IMG/VR virus record: IMGVR_UViG_3300003691_000001
Coordinates: 64,001-118,515 of that record
Strand: one strand, 5' to 3'
DNA: 54,515 nucleotides
From: a virus
Lineage: Duplodnaviria > Heunggongvirae > Uroviricota > Caudoviricetes
Both the position numbers and the translations under genes were made by a program. Positions 6,381-54,515 of the stretch are shown here, piece by piece (the first letter of the stretch is position 1; every line of letters starts with the position of its first letter). A model generated the notes under the pieces. The model was not told where the DNA came from. It saw only the letters and a program-made list of their open reading frames with translations, and ran no database searches.

Positions 6381-6787
6381 TACAGCTCCTTGTTAGCTCT
6401 TGCTATGCCAAGTAAAGCGCCTTCCAGTATAGTGGTTAAACCGTCAATGTCATTTACATAGGGGACACTATTGGACCATACAATTTCGTCACCCACCTTA
6501 AACTTTGGTATCTCCATTGCAATCTTCTTAGCTGCCTCTACTGATATCTGCCTGTCATTCGGGTAGTGTAATTTTGAAACCTCTATGTTGAAGTCTTCGA
6601 AGGTTAAATCATCCTTCCTAACACTATCTACAGCGGGTAAGAAGTTTGCAGCATGCAGTCCTGTATCTACCTTTGCTGAATCTACTAAAGCCTCTGCAAT
6701 GATAAAGGAAGCTTCCTCCATCTTATCCAGTACTTGACCTTTAACCTTCTTCTTAGCAGCTTTCAATTGTTGCCTTAACGTTGCCAT
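6380..6787 (-). CDS. Neck / tail completion protein (HK97 gp10-like)
   Basis: VDTG...ANF and IVWSNSVPYV motifs; position. Confidence 0.65.
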   Translation of the reverse strand: MATLRQQLKAAKKKVKGQVLDKMEEASFIIAEALVDSAKVDTGLHAANFLPAVDSVRKDDLTFEDFNIEVSKLHYPNDRQISVEAAKKIAMEIPKFKVGDEIVWSNSVPYVNDIDGLTTILEGALLGIARANKEL

Positions 6788-7167
6788 TAGGTACCTCTCA
6801 TTTCAATAGTCCAGATACTCCCACCTGGTGGTTGATATACATTTAAGATATGGAACTTCTCAGTTCCAATTTCAATCCTATCATCCTTAGTGGGGTTGAA
6901 ATCTATCCTAGTTGAAGGGAATACAAGCCTTGCTTCATTAACATCGATCTTATTCCCATCTAACTCACGATCTCTATTCTGATACCGTATAGCTTCAAAT
7001 GTGGATGTAACCTCTGTAGGTGTCGATTTACCAGTTGCAGGATCATACGTCCCTTTACTAGTTACTCTAATATATGTTACTAAGGTTTGTAATCCATCTT
7101 CTGTAGACTTACCTACTACATCAAATGCTACTTCCACTGCATTATTTATAATCGTATTTAATCCCAT
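6787..7167 (-). CDS. Head closure (stopper) protein
   Basis: GTYDPATG motif, PTKDDRIEIG, beta-rich; position after the adaptor. Confidence 0.7.
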   Translation of the reverse strand: MGLNTIINNAVEVAFDVVGKSTEDGLQTLVTYIRVTSKGTYDPATGKSTPTEVTSTFEAIRYQNRDRELDGNKIDVNEARLVFPSTRIDFNPTKDDRIEIGTEKFHILNVYQPPGGSIWTIEMRGT

Positions 7168-7174
7168 ACATCAC

Positions 7175-7966
7175 CTATGCTCTTGTCAGGGTTGTAAAGC
7201 TTCCTACCCCTGACCCTGTGACGTAAAAACCTATCATACGTATGACAGTGAAGTTGTTTCTAGTTAGAGCATCATGACGATCAAACTTAACCGTCACAGG
7301 ACCTGTCGTTACCTGTGAAACGCCTGTGTTATCTTTTTCAGCCCACCTATCTTCTTGTAATAAAGATAGAGCTAATTCTGCTGTAGCATGCTGTAGGAAT
7401 GCTGGTATAACTGTTGATCTAAGTTCTATTCCGTCAGGGTTGAAAACCCCTGTACGAGGCCAACTAAGCACCTGTGCACTACTGACCCTAGAACCTTTCC
7501 AAGCCATAGCATCAAGTTCTCGAGTTGCCATAACTAACGCACCACTTTTATCGTTATCACTGGCATCATCCCACTTAACCGAGTATAGCCTTGTAGTCAT
7601 GTACCTGTCGGCTTCTTGCAAGGTGATATAACTGCTGTAGAGATCTAGGGTTGTTATTACACCTATCTCTTCAATTATAGTCTCTGTGAGTCCAGTATCG
7701 ATAACAGCCAGATAAATATCATAAGTGGTTAAAGGTACTAAGAGTGGTACAACCTCTGAGTATATCCTTCCTGCAACACTCGCTGTTAAACTGGATGCAT
7801 GGATAGGTGTGCTTCCTGCAGCTCCTGTACCTGCTAAAACCTCTGTAGATGTAGGGGCTGTACTTCCACCCGCTAACACAACAAACCTATAGCTTCCTGT
7901 ATCCTGTATTGTAAAGGTAAGAGATATCGTATCTGAACCAGCCCTTACCATGTTAAATTTTGTCAT
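7175..7966 (-). CDS. Head-tail adaptor (DnaT-like family) with N-terminal beta-sandwich extension
   Basis: C-terminal SYITLQEADRY...ALVMATRELD...WKGSR...LSWPR...ATAELAL is typical of this adaptor family; extra ~105-aa N-terminal domain. Confidence 0.75.
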   Translation of the reverse strand: MTKFNMVRAGSDTISLTFTIQDTGSYRFVVLAGGSTAPTSTEVLAGTGAAGSTPIHASSLTASVAGRIYSEVVPLLVPLTTYDIYLAVIDTGLTETIIEEIGVITTLDLYSSYITLQEADRYMTTRLYSVKWDDASDNDKSGALVMATRELDAMAWKGSRVSSAQVLSWPRTGVFNPDGIELRSTVIPAFLQHATAELALSLLQEDRWAEKDNTGVSQVTTGPVTVKFDRHDALTRNNFTVIRMIGFYVTGSGVGSFTTLTRA

Positions 7967-8047
7967 TAAGTATATTCCCTCTGAAGATTATACAACACTG
8001 ATATTGTCATAGGTGGTTAGATATTTAAAATTAACAGACTGTTATGT

Positions 8048-8077
8048 AAAAAGAGGGGTACCATGGTACCCCTCTTT
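8048..8077 (-). terminator. Rho-independent terminator
   Basis: Near-perfect palindrome AAAGAGGGGTACCATGGTACCCCTCTTT with T-tract on minus strand. Confidence 0.7.
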
Positions 8078-8083
8078 ACATAC

Positions 8084-8398
8084 TTAACTGGATCTTACGT
8101 CTAAAAGATGCTCCAAGATCCTATCAAGCTTGTCTTCCATTTTACTAAGATTTGCAGCTACTGTACTTTCTAGCTTTTCAATAGCATTCTCTGTTGTATC
8201 AATCTTTTGAAGTACAAGATCAAACTTAGATTCATGCTCTATCGATTTAGTCTGAAGAGTATTCACTTTAACCTCTAATCGCTGTGTGATTGAAGCGTGT
8301 GACTTTTTCAGGTTCCAGTACTGCGTGGCTAAAAAACCTAGTGTTGCGACAAGCAAACTGCCCACGCCTATGATTAATGTTACTACTGCTGATTCCAT
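8084..8398 (-). CDS. Membrane-anchored coiled-coil protein (holin-like)
   Basis: One N-terminal hydrophobic helix, then heptad coiled coil ending KLDRILEHLL. Confidence 0.5.
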   Translation of the reverse strand: MESAVVTLIIGVGSLLVATLGFLATQYWNLKKSHASITQRLEVKVNTLQTKSIEHESKFDLVLQKIDTTENAIEKLESTVAANLSKMEDKLDRILEHLLDVRSS

Positions 8399-8509: not shown

Positions 8510-10741
8510 TTAAGTCGTATTATCTGATCTAGATGTTTCTAGCCAAGATGTCCCGTTATATCTCAGGGAGAGCGTGTCATTCACTGACGTCAGAGAGAAG
8601 TCTCCTGCAAGAGCTAAATTCCCTGTACCGTCCTTAGCTACTATAGTCCTAGCCTCTGCAGCTGCTGTAAGTACCAATGCATCTCCTATAGACCCTCCAT
8701 TTATTGTATCCAAGTCATCTGTTGCAGCATCAGCTTCTGTATCAATTGTATGATATCCCTTTGTTGCTGTAACTACACCTGTTGCAATAGTAAGCTCCGT
8801 AGGAGTTCCCAATGAAAAACTTCCTGTCACTTGGAGTTGTGTAGCTGTTATGTCTTTATTAGTAAGAGTCTGCGTTGCATCTTCTAAAACCACAGTTCCA
8901 GAGGCATCTGGAACAGTTAGTACTACATCGGTTCCTGTTGTAATACCACTTAATTCAAACTGAGTTGTTTTAGTTTCATCGGTATTATCTATCAGCTTGA
9001 AGGCGGTATCTATAAAATCTGTACCTACGGCTGCGGTGCCGCCTGCAAATATAGAAGGGATGCTTCCCCTTAAATCTTCATTCTGCAGTAGTGTCCATGT
9101 GCCTGAGGCTTGAGTTTGATGCCTGTAAGTTAACCTTGCAATCAAAAACCCTGTTCCTCTGTACGCATCTGGTATATTGTAATTAGTGGTTTTATCATTA
9201 TCTGCTATAGCTGCATTATCACTATTATAACTACCGCTAGGTAAGTTGATGATCAACTTACAATCTGTAGCGTCTTCAGAAACAATACCCCAAAGGACAA
9301 GGTTGAATCTAGAGGATGCCATTGAGGACCCTGTACTATCTGTTAACAAGGTATTTAGATCTGTAGCCTTTATATAAGGGGTTGTATTATCATTTACCAC
9401 GTACACGCTATCTGAAACTGATGTATCAAAACTTGGGAATGTGTGAGCGTGTAATTGCAGTGCCGTTCCTGAAGAAGTTGCTATATTTACATTATCTGCT
9501 GATCCACCATTAGTGGTAATAGAGGGTGTGAGGACTATCCCTGTTTCCCATGTAGCATGTTGATTTCTTATCCAGGTATTAATGTGTGATACGTGACCCA
9601 TTGAGCCTGTGTCAGATAAATTGTCCGACCACTTATGGCATTTATAACAACCATCTGTTTGTAATGAAGCTGCACTCTGTACAACTATCGTTGCTACTGG
9701 TACTATTTGAACCCCTGTTGGAAAGCCAGATGTATTCGCTGTTAGTACTCCTGTTGATTTAGGAATAAAAACATAATTTAAAGTAGGAGCTGTATCAGTA
9801 CCTGCTGTAAGTGTTACAGTCGCTGCAGGAGTCGAATCAAAGGTTGTGAATAGTGCATCAAAGAATAAAGAAAGATCGCCACCCCCGTTTTTCTCTATAG
9901 ATAATGTGACTACAGTTCCGTTACTGGTAACTGTTACACTTGTATTTTCTAAAACTGCTCCGTTGAATATCTTTATTACATCTGCTGTATTACTGGACTT
10001 ATCTATATGTACTTCTATTATACCTGCTGTAGCATGGACAGTGCTTACTGTTCCTACGGAAATAATAAAGTTAGGGCTCGAGGGTGCAGTTGCTGTAATA
10101 GCTCCATCTGTGGTATCTAAATACAGAACCTGTCCTGCTGAGTAAGACGATGTATTAACATCTCTTACTGATCCAATTCGTGTTACTATTCCTACCGTAG
10201 TATCTTCAACGTCATGAGTGGCTATGCCTACAGTGGGTACAGATGTGGCTGCTGTATTTGAATTGGCCAGGGCTACCGTAGGTACTCCACCACTTTCCCC
10301 ATTTATGTAAACTACTGAACCGTTGGTTATTGTAGCCCCTGTGCTATTCAGAGCCCTGAACCAAACTTCTTGTCCAACTTGAAGAGTAACATCTGGTTCA
10401 TCATTGTAGACAGCTAAGCACTTGTTAATGTTATCATAGAACATTAACCCTTCAGAATGTGCAGGGGCTGCTGCCACTCCTAATTGGACGTCCCCATCCT
10501 TTAATGTAACTCCATCAATGGATATACCATTAGCAGGCGTATTCTCTGCAAGAGTATCTACTGTTGCAGTACCTGTTACCGTTAATCCCCCATTAACTTT
10601 TGCATCTGTTGTACTTACTTGGAGTGCTGTAGCATCCCCTGTACCATCCTCTACATTCTTTAATGATGCAGTTACACCACCTTCCACATGCAGGAGATTA
10701 CCATATGTAGCAGCAGGGGTGCGACTTGTTAAGTCTGTCAT
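8510..10741 (-). CDS. Virion fibre protein, probable head fibre (743 aa)
   Basis: Thr/Gly/Ser-rich beta-structured protein with a cement-like domain (NSTGATITNGSVVYI...GIATHD...GQVLYL); directly downstream of the spike base and anchor genes. Confidence 0.6.
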   Translation of the reverse strand: MTDLTSRTPAATYGNLLHVEGGVTASLKNVEDGTGDATALQVSTTDAKVNGGLTVTGTATVDTLAENTPANGISIDGVTLKDGDVQLGVAAAPAHSEGLMFYDNINKCLAVYNDEPDVTLQVGQEVWFRALNSTGATITNGSVVYINGESGGVPTVALANSNTAATSVPTVGIATHDVEDTTVGIVTRIGSVRDVNTSSYSAGQVLYLDTTDGAITATAPSSPNFIISVGTVSTVHATAGIIEVHIDKSSNTADVIKIFNGAVLENTSVTVTSNGTVVTLSIEKNGGGDLSLFFDALFTTFDSTPAATVTLTAGTDTAPTLNYVFIPKSTGVLTANTSGFPTGVQIVPVATIVVQSAASLQTDGCYKCHKWSDNLSDTGSMGHVSHINTWIRNQHATWETGIVLTPSITTNGGSADNVNIATSSGTALQLHAHTFPSFDTSVSDSVYVVNDNTTPYIKATDLNTLLTDSTGSSMASSRFNLVLWGIVSEDATDCKLIINLPSGSYNSDNAAIADNDKTTNYNIPDAYRGTGFLIARLTYRHQTQASGTWTLLQNEDLRGSIPSIFAGGTAAVGTDFIDTAFKLIDNTDETKTTQFELSGITTGTDVVLTVPDASGTVVLEDATQTLTNKDITATQLQVTGSFSLGTPTELTIATGVVTATKGYHTIDTEADAATDDLDTINGGSIGDALVLTAAAEARTIVAKDGTGNLALAGDFSLTSVNDTLSLRYNGTSWLETSRSDNTT

Positions 10742-16497: not shown

Positions 16498-18879
16498 TTA
16501 GTAACTATGATCCAGTGTAAGGACTGTTACCTCACGCTTAATTATTGAAAATTCTTGAGAAACGATGTAACGAATACTATCCACTTGATGGTCAAGTCCT
16601 GAAGTTTTATCAGGTTCACTTGTACCCTGTTTATAGAGGAGTCCATCCAAGCTCTTTATCACCTGTTTACATCTAGGGTGTATTAATAACCTCCTATCTC
16701 CATCTGCATTTAACAACAGAGCATTTACATCGTTTACACTATCTACAACTAACGGGGCTTTTCTAGGAGCTTCCAACCCGAACTTGAAACTCTTGATGAT
16801 AGTGAAATCTGTCTGTCCTACTTCAGCCTTAGTGGATCTGCTTTTACCACTAGGGTCTGGGTAGGTTGTAATACTTCTTCCAGGATACTTATCCTTTATA
16901 GATTGGCATAACAACCTAGTATTTGCATTTGGTATACTGAATTCATCAAATATGTGTAACGAGTCACCCTTCTTAACTGCAAGTGTTGCACTCATAGGGT
17001 TCACGTTGAAATCGATTCCGCAAAGTATTGTAGAACCATCATCAAAGACTTCATCAGTTACACTTTCTGTAGGACTGAAGTTATAAAAGACTCGCCCTTG
17101 GACGGCCTCGAAGCTTGCAAGGAATTCCTGCTTGAACTTAGTCTCAGTCATTACACGCTTTGCAGAGGCTATCTCTGCAAGAGGTACATTACCACCTTCT
17201 GCTGTTGTAAAGACCCAGCTTTTCCAATCTGGTTCTGACAAACCCCTTAGGTACAATTGGTATATAGTATTCTCACCCATACCCTTAGGTGTACCGATAT
17301 ACAGCCCTTCACCCATGGCATTACCAAGGGCAGGACGTATTACAACATCGATTACATCTATATCAATATCCTGTACTTCATCGAATACTGTGAAGTTAAG
17401 ATCATCTCCACGAAGGGAATCACCATCTTCACAACCTTTTAATGAAATGAGGCTTTCAAAATCTTTAATTAAGATGCTTAAATCTTGTTCATTCTTCTCT
17501 GCAATGGCCTCTCTAGGTATTGCATCCTTTAGCATCCTCCACATGATCCTCTTAGCCATTTTATATGTTGGAGCAAGGTACCACACTTCTTGTTTATCTT
17601 TAACCTGTGCAGCTCTTATAAGCTCATTCACAGCTAGTACAGTATTATGTGTTGTTACAAAAGACCTACCTGCTAGGTATAGGTGGGATTCACTATCCAC
17701 GGTTATACAACAGACCTCTTCAACATATGGCAGTAATTCACATCCTGTAATGAAACGTCTTAACGACTGCTTTCCGCGAGGTTTGAAACTTATATTGTAT
17801 CTTGAAGATTTGCGTTGCAACCTGAATACATTCATCGTCGTTGCAAAACTGATCCTGTAATATGTTACACCATTTATAACTTTCGGGTGTATAGGCGCTT
17901 TCATACCTAAGCTACATAGAAGACTAGCTACATCCTTTATCAGTATCTCACTTGCAAAAGTAATCTCACACTTGTTAGTGCCGTCCTTCACAATACTACC
18001 ATCAGTATCCATAATACCTTGCAGTAGCGCTATGCGTTGCTCTATGGTTGCAAAAAGATACTCTTCGGGTATGTACTTGGTAAACTTTCTTTTATCATTA
18101 CGTACAAAACCTGCATCGTATAGACAGTTAATGAAAACACCTTTCTCTGAGCCAACTATAGCGTAAGTGGTTGCCTTTCCTGCATTCTGATGGTTAACAG
18201 GTCTTAGTCTAAAACCTTGTGCCAAGAAACTACTCACAATCTCTGAATCCATCGTAGTTATCTGTGCACTGTAACTATGTCCATCTCCTAACCAACAACC
18301 TAATAAGTAAGGGTCTAGGGGTAAAATCCTTTCTTTGTTACTCACTGCACTTGAAAGGGATATGGAATGGTTGGTCTCGGGCTTTGTGTTACTAATCCCA
18401 CCATACACTAAACTGTCTGCTATTTCCCGCGTGGTCTTAGTGGAACCCTCTCTGTCACGTCTCCTATCTAATTTGGTCTGTGTGAACCACTGATGATCTC
18501 CGCAAGCTTTAAAAGTGACACCATCTGAGAATGTTACTAAATAATAATCATCTGGTATGAAACTGCCCGTGTGAGATGTAACAGTACACTCTTTACCTTT
18601 CTCATCGAACACCTTATCAAAAATGCGCAAGTCACCTATCGTGATAAAACCTTTCGGTGTTGGTATTGGGGTATCTATATGAAGGGCTTTTCCAAATCTT
18701 CTTGCGCATACAGCTGTTCTGAAACGAGAATCATCATAGTATACAGCCTCCTGTGCACGTGTTAATCCTGTTATACTATCCCACTGACCATTAGCCTTTA
18801 AGATATCATTAGGGGTCATGTGGGGATGAGTAATATCTGTAATGATCCGCTTCTTCTTTGGAAGCAATATTCTACTCAT
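16498..18879 (-). CDS. terL: Terminase large subunit, intein-containing
   Basis: Walker A (CARRFGK/T), Walker B (FTVFDEVQD), GTPKG, nuclease GIDFN and DHQVDSIRY motifs; ~445 aa after intein removal. Confidence 0.95.
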   Translation of the reverse strand: MSRILLPKKKRIITDITHPHMTPNDILKANGQWDSITGLTRAQEAVYYDDSRFRTAVCARRFGKALHIDTPIPTPKGFITIGDLRIFDKVFDEKGKECTVTSHTGSFIPDDYYLVTFSDGVTFKACGDHQWFTQTKLDRRRDREGSTKTTREIADSLVYGGISNTKPETNHSISLSSAVSNKERILPLDPYLLGCWLGDGHSYSAQITTMDSEIVSSFLAQGFRLRPVNHQNAGKATTYAIVGSEKGVFINCLYDAGFVRNDKRKFTKYIPEEYLFATIEQRIALLQGIMDTDGSIVKDGTNKCEITFASEILIKDVASLLCSLGMKAPIHPKVINGVTYYRISFATTMNVFRLQRKSSRYNISFKPRGKQSLRRFITGCELLPYVEEVCCITVDSESHLYLAGRSFVTTHNTVLAVNELIRAAQVKDKQEVWYLAPTYKMAKRIMWRMLKDAIPREAIAEKNEQDLSILIKDFESLISLKGCEDGDSLRGDDLNFTVFDEVQDIDIDVIDVVIRPALGNAMGEGLYIGTPKGMGENTIYQLYLRGLSEPDWKSWVFTTAEGGNVPLAEIASAKRVMTETKFKQEFLASFEAVQGRVFYNFSPTESVTDEVFDDGSTILCGIDFNVNPMSATLAVKKGDSLHIFDEFSIPNANTRLLCQSIKDKYPGRSITTYPDPSGKSRSTKAEVGQTDFTIIKSFKFGLEAPRKAPLVVDSVNDVNALLLNADGDRRLLIHPRCKQVIKSLDGLLYKQGTSEPDKTSGLDHQVDSIRYIVSQEFSIIKREVTVLTLDHSY
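17644..18687 (-). mobile_element. Class 3 intein (348 aa) with LAGLIDADG endonuclease, inside terL Walker A
   Basis: Starts with Ala (GK/ALHIDTPIPTP), ends THN/T; block B DHQW, block F VCCITV, block G THN; LLGCWLGDG and LLQGIMDTDG motifs. Confidence 0.9.
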
Positions 18880-39426: not shown

Positions 39427-40017
39427 TCACGTTCTCCTAGATCCTTCATAATCTTCTAACAACTTATCCATAATCTCTTCGAACTGTGTAGCTGACATAT
39501 CAGGCAGGTTACCTCCCTCATAAAGTTCCCTCACGTTCACCATAACCATCTTAAAAATATCCTTCCTTACATCTGAAACAGAGGACTCAGGTACAGGAGG
39601 AGTTATCTTAACATATGGAAGATCTTCATATACCTTGTGATAAGGATGTTCCACCTGAGGGTAACCTCCTGTGGAACAATCACCTATAAGTTGCCCTTCA
39701 CTACCCCAACCCTGGTTTGGATCACTATCGCTTTGCGTTGTAGGTGATAACCCCTTGTACTCGCTTGCAAGTATTGCAGCTATTCCATTACCATCACTAG
39801 TTGAGAACATCAACTCGCATACAATACCCCAATCTGTCTTCCATTCAAAGGAACCACCTTCCCCATCAAACACACGGCCATAGGAATCATAATTACCATG
39901 CATTTCTTCTATGACCTTACCGTCATGCAACAGGAACAGATAAACATCATCTCCATCAAAGGATGTAGACTCTACACCCCTGTTCGCCTCTTTACACATA
40001 AAACTTAAACAACCCAT
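39427..40017 (-). CDS. Hypothetical protein
   Basis: 196 aa; MGCLSFMC...YDSYGRVF...DPNQGWG; GGAG RBS. Confidence 0.7.
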   Translation of the reverse strand: MGCLSFMCKEANRGVESTSFDGDDVYLFLLHDGKVIEEMHGNYDSYGRVFDGEGGSFEWKTDWGIVCELMFSTSDGNGIAAILASEYKGLSPTTQSDSDPNQGWGSEGQLIGDCSTGGYPQVEHPYHKVYEDLPYVKITPPVPESSVSDVRKDIFKMVMVNVRELYEGGNLPDMSATQFEEIMDKLLEDYEGSRRT

Positions 40018-40294: not shown

Positions 40295-41284
40295 TCACCC
40301 TGCACCCCTGCACTTGTCAGCCTTGTTGTTGTAGTCAATACACACATCAAGGCAGTTAGCCTTGCAGATAGGGTTTTCATGCGTATCAACGCTTTCCAAC
40401 CACTTCACCCTATCTTCTCGCATTGTATGACTCACAGGTCCAATGGGCTTCCCTTGCTCTCTGAAGAAGATTACACACGGGTAGTGGTTACGCCCTGCAA
40501 TGACTGAATCATCTAATACCAGTGGACACTTCTTTGTATCGGTGCCCTTCAGGCCTCGTACATGCTTCCCTGCAAGGAAGTTGTTCACACGGTACCGAAG
40601 TATAGGGTGCTTGTCTAAAACCTCCTCAGGGATGTTTTTAAGCTCCTCTAGGGAACCATTCCACTGAGCTGAAGGGATTACACGGATATCCGATACACCT
40701 AAACTACTTGCAAACTTTACAATCTCAATGAACCGGTTAACATTACCAGGCTCCAGTACCACACCTACTGTAACATAAGTCTCTTTCGAGATCCACCGGA
40801 TATTGTCTATAACCTTCTGCCATGCACCTTTAATATCTCCTGCCATCATATCACCTGTTTCAGCATCTGCTGCATCTAATGAGATGGAGAAGTCATTACA
40901 ACCCGCTTCAATCAATCTTTCGTACAGCTTGCGCTTCATGCTACCATTTGTAGAGATGGCTATACGCTTTATACCACTATCCTTTGCATATTGCACAGCT
41001 TCTACTATTCCAGGGTGGAATGTGGGCTCTCCACCAGAGAAGCGTATATTTTCTAAAGGACCCCATTGACACCATGCATCAATGTTCTTTTTAATATCTT
41101 CAATCGGCAACTCCTTCTTAATAGAGTTACCAAAGACATCCTCATGCAATCCCCTGCAATAAGGGCATTTAAAGTTACAGAATTCATTAATAATCATCTC
41201 ACAACGCTTCATCTGTGATGTAGGGGATGTATTATTTGCGCGTTTATCACTGAGGGTGTAGAACCCAATCTCTTCAAGTTTCAT
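40295..41284 (-). CDS. Radical SAM protein
   Basis: CNFKCPYC (CxxxCxxC), RFSGGEPT, ISTNGS, ISLD; Cys-rich C-terminal cluster. Confidence 0.92.
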   Translation of the reverse strand: MKLEEIGFYTLSDKRANNTSPTSQMKRCEMIINEFCNFKCPYCRGLHEDVFGNSIKKELPIEDIKKNIDAWCQWGPLENIRFSGGEPTFHPGIVEAVQYAKDSGIKRIAISTNGSMKRKLYERLIEAGCNDFSISLDAADAETGDMMAGDIKGAWQKVIDNIRWISKETYVTVGVVLEPGNVNRFIEIVKFASSLGVSDIRVIPSAQWNGSLEELKNIPEEVLDKHPILRYRVNNFLAGKHVRGLKGTDTKKCPLVLDDSVIAGRNHYPCVIFFREQGKPIGPVSHTMREDRVKWLESVDTHENPICKANCLDVCIDYNNKADKCRGAG

Positions 41285-43913: not shown

Positions 43914-44242
43914 CTCTTCACCCCCACCGTTACCGATGTAATACCCCATGGCGTAACTTGTATGTACGTATCCAGTTCATCCTGTAAGCCCTTTAACCTC
44001 TCCTCCAGCGCTGTGATCAACTTACCCTGCATCTCATGATAAACAGGCTCCAGTACCTCCTGTAAGAGTATAGTACTAATCTCTGTAGCACTCCGATCCG
44101 TACCTGTAGAGTTAGTACAGATGATACCCACCCTTGCCGAACCAAACTTAGTGGCACTCTTACACTGCTCCAGTAAGTCTGTAACCTGTGCAACCGCGAT
44201 ATCTAAAACCCCTACCTTCTTAAGATCTTCTCTTGTTAGCAT
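43910..44242 (-). CDS. Hypothetical protein
   Basis: 110-aa ORF in operon. Confidence 0.6.
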   Translation of the reverse strand: MLTREDLKKVGVLDIAVAQVTDLLEQCKSATKFGSARVGIICTNSTGTDRSATEISTILLQEVLEPVYHEMQGKLITALEERLKGLQDELDTYIQVTPWGITSVTVGVKR

Positions 44243-44511
44243 CCTACTCTCTCCTTTGTATCCTTAGCTTCTACACCATCTAAATCCACTACACCCAATT
44301 CAAGGTTATTACCGTAACAGTACCAATATCCTACATTACCGTTAGCAAGTCCACCAGGGTAATATGTAGGCTCATTCTCATACCAATATACATCGCCTTC
44401 CTTATCCACAGCAATGTAACCCGCTTCAGGGACTATGAACTCTATACCATTGTACTTTACTACAATCGATGCAACCTTATCCGACCTTGTTAATAACTTC
44501 ATATACTCCAT
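44236..44511 (-). CDS. Hypothetical protein, paralog family B
   Basis: GYIAVDKEGDVYWYENEPTY. Confidence 0.65.
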   Translation of the reverse strand: MEYMKLLTRSDKVASIVVKYNGIEFIVPEAGYIAVDKEGDVYWYENEPTYYPGGLANGNVGYWYCYGNNLELGVVDLDGVEAKDTKERVGC

Positions 44512-44586
44512 TCCCCTATGCTTACATGATCTTTAAATCCTTTCACTACATCAATACGGAGCTGAATCTCTTCACTCAGTTCGGGT

Positions 44587-44910
44587 TTATCCTCCAAAAG
44601 CTGATAAAGCTTCCTTAACATCTCTCCCTTTACCCCTGGAACTACATGAGGCTCCACTTAAAGTAAGAATGTCCTGTACAGGACGTAATGTATCTTTCCA
44701 ATCCACACCTTCCAAGTCTACGGTTAACAATTTATCAATATCGCAACTACAGTGCCACTCCCTAGAACTATAAGTAGGCTCCTCCTTGTACCACCATACA
44801 GTCCCGTCCTCATCCGTGGCAATATAACCATATCCATTCACCAATAGACGGATACCAAAGTAATCCACTGAAACCGGTGTGTCCGGTATGTTCATCTGTA
44901 TAATCTTCAC
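44587..44910 (-). CDS. Hypothetical protein, paralog family B
   Basis: GYIATDEDGTVWWYKEEPTY; GTG start. Confidence 0.65.
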   Translation of the reverse strand: MKIIQMNIPDTPVSVDYFGIRLLVNGYGYIATDEDGTVWWYKEEPTYSSREWHCSCDIDKLLTVDLEGVDWKDTLRPVQDILTLSGASCSSRGKGRDVKEALSAFGG

Positions 44911-44976
44911 TTCTCATCCCTCATTAATTCTATCATACCTTTCATACATTCTCTCCAATCCGTTTAATGTGTGCAT

Positions 44977-45004
44977 AGAATACACCCTCTAAATCCTATG
45001 TCAA
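44977..45004 (-). promoter_or_regulatory. sigma70-type promoter
   Basis: TTGACA-16nt-TATTCT. Confidence 0.65.
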
Positions 45005-45099
45005 GAACTATCCCCTCCAGTAGCAAAAATGGTCTATCCTATACAAACCCCTTACTCTGTGTATACATACTCATCTCATTTATTATTTGAAAAATTTTT

Positions 45100-45665
45100 A
45101 ACATGCACCTCTGAACCTTTCACAGATATGCACTGAAACACCCTATAAGCGCTCCACAACGTGCAATGTGTGCAATGTGTGAAGAACCCAAGGTAGCGCT
45201 TGCAATGTGTACAGGGCTCCTTTATGCAATGTGTGTAATGTGTGCAGAACAATACACCCTTAGTACAATGTGTGCAAGGGGCTTTAGTGTACCGGTGTGC
45301 AAAGGATGTAAATTGGGTTTTTATTTTGAAAATTTTCAAGGGGTGTAAATGGGATAGTTCTCAGAACTATACGAGGTGGGTGCACTGCCCTTATATACAG
45401 TGGCGGGGGGGGTCTAAAAACCCCGTGAAACATTCCGTGAAACATTATAGAACCATGTAGTCATAGTACACGTGTGCACTCTATTCAATGTGTGCATTCT
45501 AGTGCATGTGTGCAGATATGCATGTGTACAAGCGTGCACTGTGAAAGGTGTAGGTATACACGCGATATAGTTAGTAGGCGCTTACAGTGTAGAGGGATGT
45601 GCACAATAAACGTACAGTTTGAAGAGGTCTGAGATAGTGCAGGCGTGCATGGAATGTGTGTAACT
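45100..45665. repeat. Cluster of short direct repeats (C/A)ATGTGTGC-like
   Basis: About ten copies on the plus strand, e.g. caatgtgtgcaatgtgtg, caatgtgtgtaatgtgtgc. Confidence 0.7.
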
Positions 45666-46169
45666 ATTACTAATAATTAAGTGTTTATAGCGTTACAATG
45701 CAAGCTTATCGCTTATATTTTGCACATATGCAAAAATATGCATGTATACAACAATATAGGCATGCACATATAAAAGTGGTGATATACACCCCACCTCCAG
45801 CCATTTAAGCGTTTTTGCGTGTAGTCGCGTGTAGTATTTAGTGGGGGGTTTTTAGCCGTGCAACTCGGTAGAGTTTTACCCTCTGTAAGGGCGAAGAACA
45901 CCCTTTACGGCTGGATTTAGGATTTACCTATACTAAAGCATAGGTCATGGAGTAAGAGGGCTTAGAGGCTAATCTAGGGCCTCTGAGAGGTGTACATAAT
46001 ATAGTCGGTGTCTGTTGACATCGAATAGGATTTATGGGTGTTTATAGACTACATTGCTCCTATCTCAGAGCAAACAAATTACAGTGTATATATGTACAGT
46101 GCTTAACTGTTTGAGGTTGATCTATATATATAGACCATATAAGGCCGTTATGGTCTCCCTATAAACCAT

Positions 46170-46185
46170 TGTTTCACGTGGAACA
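46170..46185. promoter_or_regulatory. parS-type ParB binding site
   Basis: TGTTTCACGTGGAACA inside the longer palindrome CATTG...CAATG. Confidence 0.8.
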
Positions 46186-46205
46186 ATGCACAAATAGCAG
46201 GTATT

Positions 46206-46228
46206 AAAAAGCCCCAATTAAGGGGCTT
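46206..46228 (-). terminator. Rho-independent terminator
   Basis: AAGCCCC-TTAATT-GGGGCTTTTT. Confidence 0.75.
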
Positions 46229-46242
46229 GTGTGGGTAGTAGT

Positions 46243-46443
46243 TTATGTTTCATCGGTGAAAAAGTAATAATCGGCACCATAGTCATAATAAACACCTATA
46301 CCATTTATAGTGTCTATATGATCACAATATTTAATATCTTGATTAGATGTTTCAACTTCGCACCATACCAAACCTGATGCATAGTTTATAGCGTTCTCCT
46401 CTGTAGCATCGTCGCCTTGTAATATAGCATCGTATACCTTCAT
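46243..46443 (-). CDS. Early-type hypothetical protein
   Basis: 66 aa acidic; AGGGA RBS. Confidence 0.65.
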   Translation of the reverse strand: MKVYDAILQGDDATEENAINYASGLVWCEVETSNQDIKYCDHIDTINGIGVYYDYGADYYFFTDET

Positions 46444-46854
46444 AATGTAATCCCTAAATAGTTAAGTTTATACCCAATAGAAAGTAGAACATTTGTACCC
46501 ATTGTGTACTTCGACACGAATAGGCCATTCATCATAGCCATAAATAATTGTAGTGTGATCTGTTTCTTGATCGCAATGCGCTACAAAGCTTTGTTGATTA
46601 TGTCTAGTTGTGCATTCGACAATCACAGACTTCAACTGACAAGCTTCTTGTGCCTTTGCTGCCACTAATAAAACCGCTATTAATCTAGTATACACGATAT
46701 CACCTATCCTGATTAGCTGTTGAGTTCCCCTCAACCGGTAACCCATCTTAACAAATTGGGCGCATATAACAACCCCTAAATACAAATAGGTGTAAATAAA
46801 TCACTGTTCAATTATACAGTGTACTATTAAGCCTTGAAGTGTGGATAACTTTAG

Positions 46855-47157
46855 TTAATCGGTTACTAATGCGTCAACTGTTAAACTACTGAGATACTCT
46901 TCAAACCTATATACACTCATGCCTAAGTTGTATCCCCTTGCACCTCTTTTACTAACTGATCTAACATATTCACTAGGGTTGTTATGATTGTAATAGTTAT
47001 CTACAAAGGTTTTCCTCTTTTTAGCAGTTGAAAATATAGCCGTTATACCATAATAACTCATATGGCCCGTGTGTGGATTTGGTGCACCTGTTGTAACATC
47101 TTGGCCTATTTGTACGAAATAAAGTTTTTTCTTTTCAGTTGATTCTACTATATTCAT
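46855..47157 (-). CDS. Early-type hypothetical protein
   Basis: 100 aa; AAGG RBS. Confidence 0.65.
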   Translation of the reverse strand: MNIVESTEKKKLYFVQIGQDVTTGAPNPHTGHMSYYGITAIFSTAKKRKTFVDNYYNHNNPSEYVRSVSKRGARGYNLGMSVYRFEEYLSSLTVDALVTD

Positions 47158-47180
47158 GATTTTTACCTTTTTAAAAAACG

Positions 47181-47513
47181 TTATAGTGATTCTATAAAAT
47201 CCAATACGTCTAACGTATGTTCACAGTCTAGCGATTCACTAGCTAACTGTTCAGCGTAATAATTTAACGCTATAACCATTAGATTCAAATCTCCCCCGTT
47301 AAGATTGTATGCTCCGGCACCTTTCCAAAAGGACGTGTATAGGCTTCCACATTCTTGTATTTCTTCGACTTGCCATTGTGACATTTCATCATTAAAATCT
47401 AACAGGGAGTCACTATAACATTTTAAGGCGCGCCTTAACACCCTTCTGTGAACGTGTGGAAAAGTTAAAACGTGTTGCTTTTTAAGTCTATCCACGATAT
47501 CACAATAATTCAT
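47181..47513 (-). CDS. Early-type hypothetical protein
   Basis: 110-aa ORF. Confidence 0.6.
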   Translation of the reverse strand: MNYCDIVDRLKKQHVLTFPHVHRRVLRRALKCYSDSLLDFNDEMSQWQVEEIQECGSLYTSFWKGAGAYNLNGGDLNLMVIALNYYAEQLASESLDCEHTLDVLDFIESL

Positions 47514-47547
47514 ATTCTAACCCGTTTATTTTGAATAGTTACTACCC

Positions 47548-47570
47548 AAAAAGCCCTAATAAAAGGGCTT
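47548..47570 (-). terminator. Rho-independent terminator
   Basis: AAGCCCT-TTTATT-AGGGCTTTTT. Confidence 0.7.
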
Positions 47571-47573
47571 GTA

Positions 47574-47589
47574 TGTTCCACGTGAAACA
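47574..47589. promoter_or_regulatory. parS-type ParB binding site
   Basis: TGTTCCACGTGAAACA. Confidence 0.8.
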
Positions 47590-47614
47590 ATACATTCAAA
47601 AATCGGGTTAAATG

Positions 47615-47809
47615 CTATTTATAGTTGCAAACATGAATGGGATTCATTGCAGTCATTGCAGCCATTGCACCCAGTCGGAATTTGAAGCTTTTATCTAGCG
47701 ATTGAATTTTGTTCATTTTACTTGTAGCGCTCACACTGTTAGCTAATTGCATATTAGCTATATGCTCAGAGCGGATTTTATTGGATGATGCATTGCGTAT
47801 AGTGTTCAT
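47615..47809 (-). CDS. Early-type hypothetical protein
   Basis: Start set at MNTIRNA. Confidence 0.45.
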   Translation of the reverse strand: MNTIRNASSNKIRSEHIANMQLANSVSATSKMNKIQSLDKSFKFRLGAMAAMTAMNPIHVCNYK

Positions 47810-47820
47810 ATTGTAAGCCT

Positions 47821-48273
47821 TTAGTAGTCTGTTAACCAATCGTTTGGAATTCCGTAACACTCGAAACCCATATCTAAATCAATAGAATCTAGATTACCAC
47901 AGTTTGGTACGCAAGGGCTACACAAATTTACATAAGATTTAATAGGGCTTTCAAATATGAAGAAATTAAGCGCGCCTCCTAAATAACTGGTTTTATACCT
48001 CACCTCCTCATATTCGCCGGATACGCTAGGCTCTTCACAACTATAATGCTCTAATTGATCCAGCAAACTTGTACTATCACTAATATAATCGTATGCATCC
48101 CCTATACCATCCCAACCATTCATCATAGCAAGTTCCTTTGAAAATTCATCATGACTATGATCAAAACCGGATTCATATAATAAATGGTCTACTAACTCAC
48201 TGCGTAGAGAATTAGCGGATATATAGCCAAACCTAATCCCTGTTTTTTCGTTCACATTTGATAGTGTGTTCAT
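47821..48273 (-). CDS. Early-type hypothetical protein
   Basis: Start set at MNTLSN; GIRFGYIS...SYLGGA...CSPCVPNCGNLDS. Confidence 0.7.
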   Translation of the reverse strand: MNTLSNVNEKTGIRFGYISANSLRSELVDHLLYESGFDHSHDEFSKELAMMNGWDGIGDAYDYISDSTSLLDQLEHYSCEEPSVSGEYEEVRYKTSYLGGALNFFIFESPIKSYVNLCSPCVPNCGNLDSIDLDMGFECYGIPNDWLTDY

Positions 48274-48298
48274 ACAGTAATCCTGTTTAGTATTTGAT

Positions 48299-48314
48299 TG
48301 TTTCACGTGAAACA
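48299..48314. promoter_or_regulatory. parS-type ParB binding site (perfect palindrome)
   Basis: TGTTTCACGTGAAACA. Confidence 0.85.
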
Positions 48315-48322
48315 TTGGTTAA

Positions 48323-48634
48323 TTAGATATCGTTTAATGGTAATTGACTTTTATTAATATTTCCAGCTCTACAGGATTTAACTAGGTCGGTTAATGACCT
48401 AGGCATTGAATAAAACCGCCTTATTGCTGGGGTATTACGCTCTACAATAGCGGCCTTTTCCCATTTAGCAGCTAACACTAGATTTCTAGTGTATTTTGTG
48501 CCATATGGCCCCTTTACCGCTGTAAACCCTCGTTTGGTAGTGTATATGATGACCTTAGGTGGTTCTTTAAAAGCCCAAAATATAACGTCATGACGGTTTT
48601 TAACCTGCTTTAGACGTACAAGTAAAGTGTGCAT
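48323..48634 (-). CDS. Early-type basic hypothetical protein
   Basis: 103 aa; AAGG RBS. Confidence 0.55.
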   Translation of the reverse strand: MHTLLVRLKQVKNRHDVIFWAFKEPPKVIIYTTKRGFTAVKGPYGTKYTRNLVLAAKWEKAAIVERNTPAIRRFYSMPRSLTDLVKSCRAGNINKSQLPLNDI

Positions 48635-48803
48635 ATACTAACCTTTCATATTGTTAAATTTAATAAATCCAAACAAATAACCTGTTGAAGACAATAACAC
48701 GCCATTTACAGACACGTCAACCACCTTTAATAGTAAGTTATCTATTCGTGTAATTTGTTTAGACATACTATCTACTCGCATATGTTGCTATTTGATATCT
48801 TTA

Positions 48804-48831
48804 ACTATAGTTAACTATTCGCAGTGTGCAA
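48804..48831 (-). promoter_or_regulatory. sigma70-type promoter
   Basis: TTGCAC-16nt-TATAGT with AT-rich upstream element. Confidence 0.55.
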
Positions 48832-49060
48832 GAAAATAGTGTAAATAAATTTAATTAAATAAAGGGTATACAATTTAGCACATGTGTGGCAAGGTTTATG
48901 GGCTTGTGACTTGTTCACAATTCAACCAATTTATAGGGGTAACTATGCATAAAATTTAACCAATTAAAACAGTACACGTGTACCTATTTATTTCAACCTT
49001 TTCACGTTGGGACGATAGAGTATGCCTGGTTGATTTTCAACCAACTGGAATGGTCTTTTG

Positions 49061-49126
49061 TGACTTACTAGTCAGTACACACATGTACTTTTATGACTTG
49101 CTGGTCAGTGTACGCGTGTACTCTTA
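49061..49126. repeat. Two tandem 33-bp imperfect repeats, each with TGAC-N6-GTCA
   Basis: TGACTTACTAGTCAGTACACACATGTACTTTTA / TGACTTGCTGGTCAGTGTACGCGTGTACTCTTA. Confidence 0.7.
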
Positions 49127-49330
49127 TATTTTATGGCTAGAACTGGCTGGTCACCAATAAAAATCATTTTAGTACGATCGTTCCAGGCCTTATGTTAACG
49201 CGCCTTTTCCCAGTCTCCCTATATATACAAAATCTCGTTTTTGCTCTGAGTTCCAAAATTTGGCACAACTCTACTTTTTCAATTCTGAAAATACTCTATA
49301 GTGGTGCTCATGGATAGCCTACAAGGCATT

Positions 49331-49480
49331 AAGGCCGCTAGTGTATAGTATACTAGGCATTTAGTATTAATTAGTTCAATAAGTATAATATATTATGCAT
49401 GCTAAAGCTAGAAAGCCTACTCAATAGGGACGTTGTAAAACGTTTAAGGGTAGGCTCTAAAGGCTCGCACTAGCGGCCTT
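49331..49480. repeat. Long-range 13-bp inverted repeat
   Basis: AAGGCCGCTAGTG (49331-43) / CACTAGCGGCCTT (49468-80). Confidence 0.7.
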
Positions 49481-49636
49481 GTATCCCCTTCAAGGGGGTT
49501 TTGTGCCTATACCCTATAGTTGGTATAGGTCTTTATGTATGCCCCTTCATAGGGCTGTAATTAGTCCATGATATGCGCGCCCCCTTTGAGCGCTATGAGA
49601 ACACAAAACACGGGTACACTCCGAGCTTGTACCTAG

Positions 49637-49657
49637 AAAGCCCCAATTAAGGGGCTT
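49637..49657 (-). terminator. Rho-independent terminator
   Basis: AAGCCCC-TTAATT-GGGGCTTT, same hairpin as 46206. Confidence 0.7.
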
Positions 49658-49683
49658 ATGTAGATCAGTGGAGTTTGTTAGCT

Positions 49684-50253
49684 TTACATGTGTTTAGCTA
49701 GGAATTGTTCGTACTGGCTTTCTATCTGTAGGCCACCCTTCAGCTTATCTTGTTTAGATCTTAGTTCTTGGATAGTTGTTAAATGGGTGCTTATGGACTT
49801 TTCATTGGCTTCATATTGCTGTCTAATGCTTAACCGTGTAACACCTTGTTGTGGGTTGCTTTCAACCCCTTTACCTTTTAAGGGCTTAGATGCCTTTTGC
49901 TGCTTATCGGCTGTAGCCTTTTTCAGCCGTAATATATCGGCTTTAGTAGGTATAATCAGACCACTATGCGGCTTACTAAATCCCTGTAGGATGCTGATAA
50001 TATCAACTATAACATTTCTATGTAGCATGGCATGTGAGTGCAAAGAACCGCTAAGTTTAGAATGTGCATGAACAATCAATACTTCAGCCGCCAAATCCCT
50101 TGATACCTCATAATCTTTAGCTATTCTCTTTAGGCTACCATGTACACCTGCTCCAGGTAAAACGGTATTACTTAGGTAAGCTACTGAAGGAAAGTTACCA
50201 AAACGTGTTTGAAGAGAAACAGGTATAGAGCTGCTAGAAGTTGAATTGTTCAT
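49684..50253 (-). CDS. Early-type hypothetical protein with C-terminal coiled coil
   Basis: 189 aa; AAGG RBS. Confidence 0.65.
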   Translation of the reverse strand: MNNSTSSSSIPVSLQTRFGNFPSVAYLSNTVLPGAGVHGSLKRIAKDYEVSRDLAAEVLIVHAHSKLSGSLHSHAMLHRNVIVDIISILQGFSKPHSGLIIPTKADILRLKKATADKQQKASKPLKGKGVESNPQQGVTRLSIRQQYEANEKSISTHLTTIQELRSKQDKLKGGLQIESQYEQFLAKHM

Positions 50254-54082: not shown

Positions 54083-54436
54083 TTAAAATTTGCAAACGAT
54101 TTTTTGAATTCCGGCCCAGTATCTATATTTATCAATATTTCCGGCTTGGTTCCAACTAGCCGTTACAATCTGGGCTTGTGCACAAACTTCATATTTAGTA
54201 CCATGAAGTCTAGCACGGTTGAACTGACTTTCGAAGTCTTTTGCGACTTTTATTTTAATGCTCTGTAGATTAATTTCGGTTTGCTTTTGTAAACTTTCTT
54301 GATAGTTACTAGTGTTAAAGGTTGGTAGTGTGAATCCAGGACGGGTGAAAGTTATAACACAATAGATTGTTAATGCAAAGACAATAAAGCCTAAGGCAGG
54401 TTTTAATAAGCTATCGTTATTTGTTGATATGGTCAT
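54083..54436 (-). CDS. Membrane-anchored protein
   Basis: One N-terminal TM helix; C-terminal EVCAQA...KYRYW...IVC; AAGGGA RBS. Confidence 0.65.
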   Translation of the reverse strand: MTISTNNDSLLKPALGFIVFALTIYCVITFTRPGFTLPTFNTSNYQESLQKQTEINLQSIKIKVAKDFESQFNRARLHGTKYEVCAQAQIVTASWNQAGNIDKYRYWAGIQKIVCKF

Positions 54437-54457
54437 GATAGTATCCCTTACTTATCT

Positions 54458-54515
54458 AGATCAGAAGAGCGTCGTGTAGGGAAAGAGTGTAGATCTCGGT
54501 GGTCGCCGTATCATT
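54458..54515 (+). other. Illumina TruSeq universal adapter read-through (artefact)
   Basis: AGATCaGAAGAGCGTCGTGTAGGGAAAGAGTGTAGATCTCGGTGGTCGCCGTATCATT, 57/58 identical to the adapter reverse complement. Confidence 0.98.

Follow-up and report, generated by a model that had tools for sequence, protein, structure and literature searches.

Orphan host-type parS sites clustered in a large, apparently virulent siphovirus suggest use of host ParB

A tailed phage of the class Caudoviricetes, known from IMG/VR virus record IMGVR_UViG_3300003691_000001, carries three copies of parS, the 16-bp palindrome recognized by the bacterial chromosome segregation protein ParB (Spo0J), and encodes no ParA or ParB that we could find. 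The sites lie in the stretch of 54,515 nucleotides (nt) that we analyzed, hereafter the window, which corresponds to record bases 64001-118515 of a 118,515-bp record judged 82% complete. We consider the sites to be real and probably functional. The reading that we favor, with a probability of about one half, is that host ParB loads at these three orphan parS sites and that the host segregation machinery handles the phage chromosome, much as described for the Bacillus phage phi29 and in this case without sporulation. The three sites are as follows.

46170-46185, no strand: parS1, TGTTTCACGTGGAACA, exact pattern match
47574-47589, no strand: parS2, TGTTCCACGTGAAACA, exact pattern match
48299-48314, no strand: parS3, TGTTTCACGTGAAACA, perfect palindrome, exact pattern match

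The parS sites were rare by every measure that we applied. All three match TGTTNCACGTGNAACA with 0 mismatches, and a search of the window that tolerated up to 2 mismatches returned these three and no others, compared with a mean of 0.13 matches in shuffled versions of the window at the same threshold (n = 100, with three or more matches in 0 of 100 shuffles). With up to 1 mismatch allowed, the whole 118,515-bp record likewise contained these three sites and no others. A contig in ENA (ERZ27335247 k119_43701, 152,036 bp) is 99.7% identical and belongs to the same phage; all three parS sites are intact in it, and we assembled a 152,036-bp composite from the 118.5-kb record and the remaining 33 kb of this contig. 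Searched at up to 2 mismatches, the composite held the three sites, two chance 2-mismatch matches, and nothing more, which places every parS inside 2.2 kb and none elsewhere in 152 kb. The order-0 expectation of TGTTYCACGTGRAACA in 152 kb is 0.00016, and the probability of a three-site cluster under base composition is approximately 1e-15. An earlier note on this DNA, made from the sequence alone, had reported the three 16-mers as clustered within 2.2 kb and very unlikely to have arisen by chance, and both statements are borne out by the exact matches and the expected counts.

The sequences themselves support the assignment of the three 16-mers as bona fide host-type parS. Each is a 16-bp palindrome that fits the chromosomal-type pattern tGTTNCACGTGNAACa, and the variable positions of the three sites take T/C and A/G only. 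The spelling of parS1 is also the spelling of four exact sites in phi29. The 16-bp core is the only sequence that the three sites have in common, and their flanks differ, which fits the footprint of a protein rather than a mobile repeat.

We found no phage genes that could account for these sites as a partition system. Six-frame profile searches of the 118.5-kb record, which were positive on control genomes, detected no ParB_N (PF02195) or HTH_ParB (PF17762), even at an E-value of 0.1, no members of the ParA families CbiA (PF01656) or AAA_31 (PF13614), and no tyrosine integrase or resolvase. For the 33 kb beyond the IMG/VR record we relied solely on precomputed Pfam gene tables, which likewise contained no ParB, ParA, integrase, or resolvase family. 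The absence of parAB that the earlier note had seen in the window thus extends to the whole genome, and the phage parB that it had suggested looking for elsewhere was not found. With parA and parB missing from both the record and the 33-kb tables, the phage does not have a self-contained ParABS system, and because no parAB lies elsewhere in the genome, the objection that the sites reflect ordinary plasmid-prophage partitioning does not apply.

Gene content is consistent with a large tailed phage that replicates by its own means. Tape measure, portal, and large terminase genes identify it as a siphovirus-type phage, and the genome contains 16 tRNAs as well as genes for NAMPT/NMNAT, DNA polymerase A, UvrD helicase, ThyA, DHFR, RNA ligases, and Ocr. 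The earlier note had described the phage as apparently lytic, and we agree that it looks virulent, given the lack of tyrosine or serine recombinases, the replication genes, and the tRNAs. Genes are oriented on the plus strand over 19-81 kb of the ENA contig and on the minus strand in the rest, and the parS cluster sits in the minus-strand arm, amid small genes without functional annotation and 6-8 kb from an end shared by the two assemblies. The portal protein is less than 40% identical to that of every cultured phage, and its top matches are phages of Proteobacteria; the host is probably a non-sporulating Gram-negative bacterium.

Under the favored reading, the host's own ParB, a clamp that depends on cytidine triphosphate (CTP), would load at the three parS sites during infection and spread for a few kb, including the non-coding block of repeats beside them. 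The phage chromosome would then be treated as an origin-proximal centromere by host ParA and ParB, possibly with SMC, and phage DNA would be positioned and passed to daughter cells. Such partitioning may matter most when lytic growth is delayed, as in a starved or slow-growing host or in a carrier state. Lin and Grossman are said to have reported in 1998 that one chromosomal parS stabilizes an unstable plasmid in a ParAB-dependent manner. The earlier note had likewise proposed that the sites recruit host ParB, and the part of this proposal that rests on orphan sites of host type stands, whereas the lack of sites in the 40.8 kb examined of the nearest long relative speaks against it and the principle had already been published for phi29. 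We note that positioning, titration of ParB, gene silencing, and SMC loading, all of which had been raised as possible outcomes, are not separable from sequence.

The closest precedent is the virulent phage phi29, from which the use of host ParB by a virulent phage is already known. Phi29 has five parS sites, and the host Spo0J (ParB) takes part in moving the phage genome to the prespore, which entraps that genome in the spore (Meijer et al. 2005, cited in PMC2731898 and PMC9437464). Our pattern search, run on phi29 (NC_011048) as a positive control, recovered four exact TGTTTCACGTGGAACA sites at 10445, 15903, 17243, and 18760. Both phages appear virulent, lack a ParB of their own, and carry several exact host-type parS sites. 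One site abuts an intrinsic terminator in each phage, with the phi29 site at 17243 lying between the gene 16 stop and terminator TD1, mirroring parS2. The binder is the host segregation protein in phi29, where this was demonstrated, and presumably also here.

The differences from phi29 are nevertheless substantial. Phi29 is a 19-kb protein-primed podovirus of a spore-former, whereas the phage described here is a tRNA-rich siphovirus of ~152 kb. Its sites are all intergenic and lie within 2.2 kb, next to a repeat block, while those of phi29 are distributed along the right half of its genome, most of them in genes. The phi29 sites act together with Spo0A boxes; in our phage, such boxes were not enriched (13 observed versus 20 expected, none of them at early intergenic regions), there was no sign of sporulation coupling, and the host is probably Gram-negative. 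Consistent with this, strong Shine-Dalgarno sequences preceded only 24% of open reading frames (ORFs), a usage that is not Bacillus-like. What is new is therefore not the principle, but its probable extension to a large tRNA-rich siphovirus with a probable non-sporulating Gram-negative host and a parS cluster that flanks a repeat block.

Other known systems share some of these features. Chromosomal ParABS, in which CTP-bound ParB/Spo0J loads SMC, uses the identical 16-bp palindrome, clustered within a few kb and beside an origin, as the phage sites lie beside a candidate origin-like region, but on this phage replicon parA and parB are absent. P1 ParAB-parS, N15 SopAB-sopC, and the parABS cassettes of mycobacteriophages also place centromere-like sites on a phage genome; those phages, however, encode their own ParA and ParB and use system-specific sites, both of which are missing here. 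Another such case is SGI1, which hijacks the parABS system of IncC plasmids via its own parS copies (PMC10954446). SGI1 is also a mobile element with only the cis site that uses the ParAB of another replicon, although it is an integrative island acting on the system of a helper plasmid rather than a virulent phage acting on a chromosomal system.

Several observations weigh against the reading that host ParB handles the phage chromosome. We can name no cognate ParB. The only other copy of the phage is 99.7% identical and so uninformative about conservation of the sites. In the nearest long relative, the 40.8 kb that we examined (spanning 30 kb on the upstream side and 11 kb on the downstream side of the portal gene) contained zero parS sites at up to 3 mismatches and zero copies of the half-site 9-mer, and the early region of this relative has no gene in common with our phage. 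DnaA boxes are unclustered in the non-coding block beside the sites, which makes the label "origin" a guess. Finally, the lack of any spore-linked logic means that the benefit to the phage must differ from that in phi29.

The relatives available for these comparisons were few. A megablast search of positions 44000-50000 against cultured phages gave no match. The portal and the product of gene 47821-48273, each scanned singly against IMG/VR, led to no relatives, and neither did a scan of JGI metagenomes with gene 47181-47513. A clade of portal proteins with 48-63% identity was found only in ENA and Logan contigs. Its longest contig (89 kb, portal 55% identical) is the relative described above, and its structural module is syntenic with that of our phage. 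Because the 40.8 kb examined of this relative have no parS and its early region is unrelated, there is no evidence of conservation within the lineage; the search for conserved clusters in related phages that the earlier note had suggested thus found none in this relative. As far as can be seen, the parS cluster is lineage-specific. A 27-kb piece of the same phage is contained within NCBI assembly GCA_001757535.1 (JQIA01), an unannotated nucleotide-only record, and scans of genome contigs aimed at identifying the host gave no match.

Beyond this lineage, orphan parS looks widespread on viral DNA. A pattern scan of IMG/VR yielded at least 119 parS-bearing loci, with 151 sites among the matches listed, and 145 of these 151 had T/C and A/G at the two free positions. 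An equally degenerate control, TGTTRCACGTGYAACA, gave 65 sites in the whole IMG/VR collection, eight of them on one contig. The predominance of natural variants together with the sparse control indicates that the IMG/VR sites are true parS rather than chance matches, on the assumption that the at least 119 listed loci are an unbiased sample. ParB_N (E ≤ 0.01) was present in seven of the 119 parS records among the matches listed and absent from 112; among the listed records that were at least 90% complete, three of 29 had it and 26 did not. As a background, we searched 80 phage loci centered on a radical S-adenosylmethionine (radical-SAM) gene, 1.39 Mb in total, and found no parS with 1 mismatch or fewer; 50 whole IMG/VR phage records that carry homologues of this gene had none either.

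Two sets of viruses from the scan resemble our phage in having multiple sites and no detected ParB_N. The first is an unrelated 77-kb phage (L041; IMG/VR 3300028591_000176, 97% complete), which has exact parS sites at 6637, 6863, and 6879, all inside a 1.6-kb AT-rich and repeat-rich non-coding region (6490-8140) between divergent operons; its record contained no ParB_N. The second comprises three related phi29-like viruses (L036, L085, and L091; 10.6-11.1 kb) that carry Phi29_MCP, connector, gp16 ATPase, and protein-primed PolB genes. In all three, two exact parS sites stand in tandem 200-800 bp from one end, and ParB_N is missing. The orphan pair is thus conserved in this phi29-like family, while such conservation among relatives was not seen for the cluster in our phage. 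We rejected parS beside a long non-coding block as a general layout, which applied to only two of 19 multi-site loci among the matches listed. Separately, a 23-kb record (L253 / L278; IMG/VR 3300037423_000235) has eight copies of a variant palindrome, TGTTACACGTGTAACA, with no ParB_N match, and may represent a specificity-shifted parS-like system. Our literature searches turned up no description of orphan chromosomal parS occurring naturally in virulent phages other than phi29; ParB-parS otherwise serves as an engineered tag for phage DNA.

The surroundings of the cluster bear on how the sites might act. Independent gene calls on the ENA contig and predicted folds agree with the earlier description of all sites as intergenic and two as lying beside terminators. 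The features other than parS are as follows.

48323-48634, minus strand: basic ORFan of 103 amino acids, no Pfam or PHROG match
47821-48273, minus strand: gene for a 150-amino-acid protein with no Pfam domain; 65 homologues, in many unrelated phages
47546-47570, minus strand: intrinsic terminator directly after parS2, hairpin and U-run in fold, AAGCCCUUUUAUUAGGGCUUUUU
46243-47513, minus strand: four small genes of unassigned function (110, 100, 92, and 66 amino acids), bracketed by parS2 and parS1
46204-46228, minus strand: intrinsic terminator after gene 46243-46443, hairpin and U-run in fold, AAGCCCCUUAAUUGGGGCUUUUU
45423-45446, plus strand: tandem half-sites, CCGTGAAACATT twice, each with the parS right half CGTGAAACA
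44911-46242, no strand: gene-free block of 1,332 nt, no called gene and no Rfam family
44587-44910, minus strand: first gene past the non-coding block, 107 amino acids, phrog_1972, unknown function

Read along the minus strand, the order is ORFan 48634-48323, parS3, gene 48273-47821, parS2, a terminator, the four small genes, a second terminator, parS1, the non-coding block, and gene 44910-44587. parS3 lies 8 nt past the stop of the ORFan and 25 nt ahead of the start of gene 47821-48273. parS2 falls within a 307-nt gap between genes (47514-47820), immediately 5' of the AAGCCCUUUUAUUAGGGCUUUUU hairpin on the coding strand. parS1 stands at the edge of the gene-free block, approximately 20 nt 3' (in the minus-strand sense) of AAGCCCCUUAAUUGGGGCUUUUU, the terminator that closes the four-gene block. 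The hairpins of both terminators form on the coding (minus) strand.

The proteins encoded here offered few clues. The 103-amino-acid ORFan matched only itself among 1.84 billion representatives and has no clear fold relative, and the four small genes gave no informative family matches. Members of the family of gene 47821-48273 are encoded in early regions across many unrelated phages, T4-like phages among them, beside gp32, gp59, or UvrD genes; no parS was present in the loci examined around three of its homologues (eight loci in all).

The gene-free block is rich in repeats. It contains 10 of the 17 genomic plus-strand copies of ATGTGT[GA][CT]A, in one orientation, and several longer direct repeats, and is a candidate iteron, origin, or control region. 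Exact DnaA boxes numbered 10 genome-wide and were unclustered; one of them (TTATCCACA, 46840-46848, minus strand) lies outside the block, in the gap between genes 46855-47157 and 46468-46746. The tandem half-sites, which we confirmed as the earlier note had given them, are inside the block, 724 nt from parS1. The 9-mer CGTGAAACA has four copies in the 118.5-kb record, two in full sites and two in this tandem. Pseudomonas aeruginosa ParB binds half-parS (PMC10419367, PMC5961200), and the heptamer or half-site motifs involved resemble the tandem CGTGAAACA; there, they are dispersed over the chromosome, whereas here we see a single tandem pair of uncertain significance. Heptamer half-sites were approximately twofold above the base-composition expectation across the phage genome, without specific clustering. 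The tandem could be a single chance half-site duplicated by slippage and is suggestive only. We discarded a split inverted repeat, TGTTCCAC-N16-GTGGAACA at 39647-39678, as a chance occurrence within a coding region. We also discarded an RNA-level reading of the palindromes, which gave only weak RNA folds (-4.7 kcal/mol), and an Rfam search at the parS sites and the non-coding block found no family.

Host ParB could also be bound to a different end. Hundreds of replicating parS copies might soak up host ParB and disrupt origin segregation, SMC loading, or ParB-linked division control, with disabling of the host as the benefit. In some bacteria, segregation and division are disturbed when multicopy plasmids supply additional parS, and the phage sites lie amid small genes of early type. 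The sequence evidence for host ParB binding serves titration equally and does not separate it from the favored reading. However, a single site would suffice on a high-copy genome, and the phi29 case suggests that it is the phage genome that is segregated. We regard titration as unlikely.

That the sites coincide with gene boundaries and terminators and adjoin a repeat-rich block resembling a control region would also suit a binder encoded by the phage, such as an unrecognized ParB/KorB-like or other helix-turn-helix protein that uses the sites as operators or loading sites for an early-to-middle switch. Their identity to host parS would then reflect descent from, or mimicry of, ParB specificity. 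Many of the neighboring genes are ORFans, including the basic 103-amino-acid protein that ends 8 nt from parS3. This protein, however, has no DNA-binding fold match, the profile searches described above gave no ParB_N or HTH_ParB signal even at their most permissive threshold, the three spellings are exactly natural host variants, and no sigma-70-like promoter overlaps any of the sites. A phage-encoded binder seems quite unlikely given these results.

The absence of an overlapping promoter counts equally against a role in insulation or timing. In this reading, host ParB clamps loaded at the sites linked to terminators would spread or form roadblocks, so that less transcription from the early block continued into the repeat block and the middle genes. 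Such a role would explain why two of the three sites abut intrinsic terminators, as one phi29 site abuts TD1, and why sites bracket the four-gene unit. P. aeruginosa ParB affects promoters by parS3 and parS4 of that species (PMC5521831), which we count in its favor. The three other exact phi29 sites, by contrast, are inside genes. Moreover, spreading of chromosomal ParB usually has little effect on transcription. We see only a slim chance that insulation is the main role.

That the sites have no function, having arisen by chance or being neutral leftovers of DNA captured from a host or plasmid, would fit the lack of conservation of the cluster in the nearest relative but is very improbable given the ~1e-15 probability of the cluster under base composition, its distribution over three separate intergenic spots with unrelated flanks, and adjoining genes that are phage ORFans rather than host genes.

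Other features of the genome were seen in passing. The two independent assemblies end no more than 73 nt apart (window 54083-54515; L123 1-220 and L131 17290-17362). The 152-kb contig opens with 72 nt that repeat, at 97%, the 5' end of gene 54083-54436, and beyond this gene the contig end reads into the start of a plus-strand ORF, MKGIVLAGGLGTRLLPLTK..., which we take to resemble glucose-1-phosphate thymidylyltransferase (RmlA). The assemblies could end at a circular junction where one branch varies between strains, or at att-like repeats beside a host gene; exact-match scans of genome contigs and metagenomes for the junction gave no match. Genes of the Ocr, Acb3, and Gad1 anti-defense families, taken from precomputed Pfam annotation, lie outside the IMG/VR record (L131 11739-12353; L128 2248-2967 and 11013-12023). 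The radical-SAM protein at 40295-41284 is an unusually conserved phage enzyme without an assigned role. It is 50-73% identical in IMG/VR phages, with 60-73% identity in the best 120 of 3,591 homologues (E ≤ 1e-20), and many of those 120 come from large phage contigs whose gene content otherwise overlaps little with that of our phage.

If host ParB does load at these sites, a virulent phage would be using the bacterial centromere system without encoding any part of it, and a mechanism known from one family of Bacillus phages would extend to very different phages. This would provide a simple route for placing "lytic" genomes in the cell or for their inheritance through divisions under poor growth. 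Approximately 94% of the parS-bearing viral contigs among the matches listed lack ParB, and this, together with the strong enrichment over control palindromes, suggests that the phenomenon is frequent enough to merit systematic study; the presence of parS would also be a cheap marker of a ParABS-bearing host. We tentatively raise the possibility that orphan host-type parS is a general, largely unrecognized strategy by which many tailed phages with non-sporulating ParABS hosts ride on host ParB and ParA (and SMC). If true, it would offer a concrete molecular explanation of how virulent phages maintain stable carrier states (pseudolysogeny) in aquatic bacteria.

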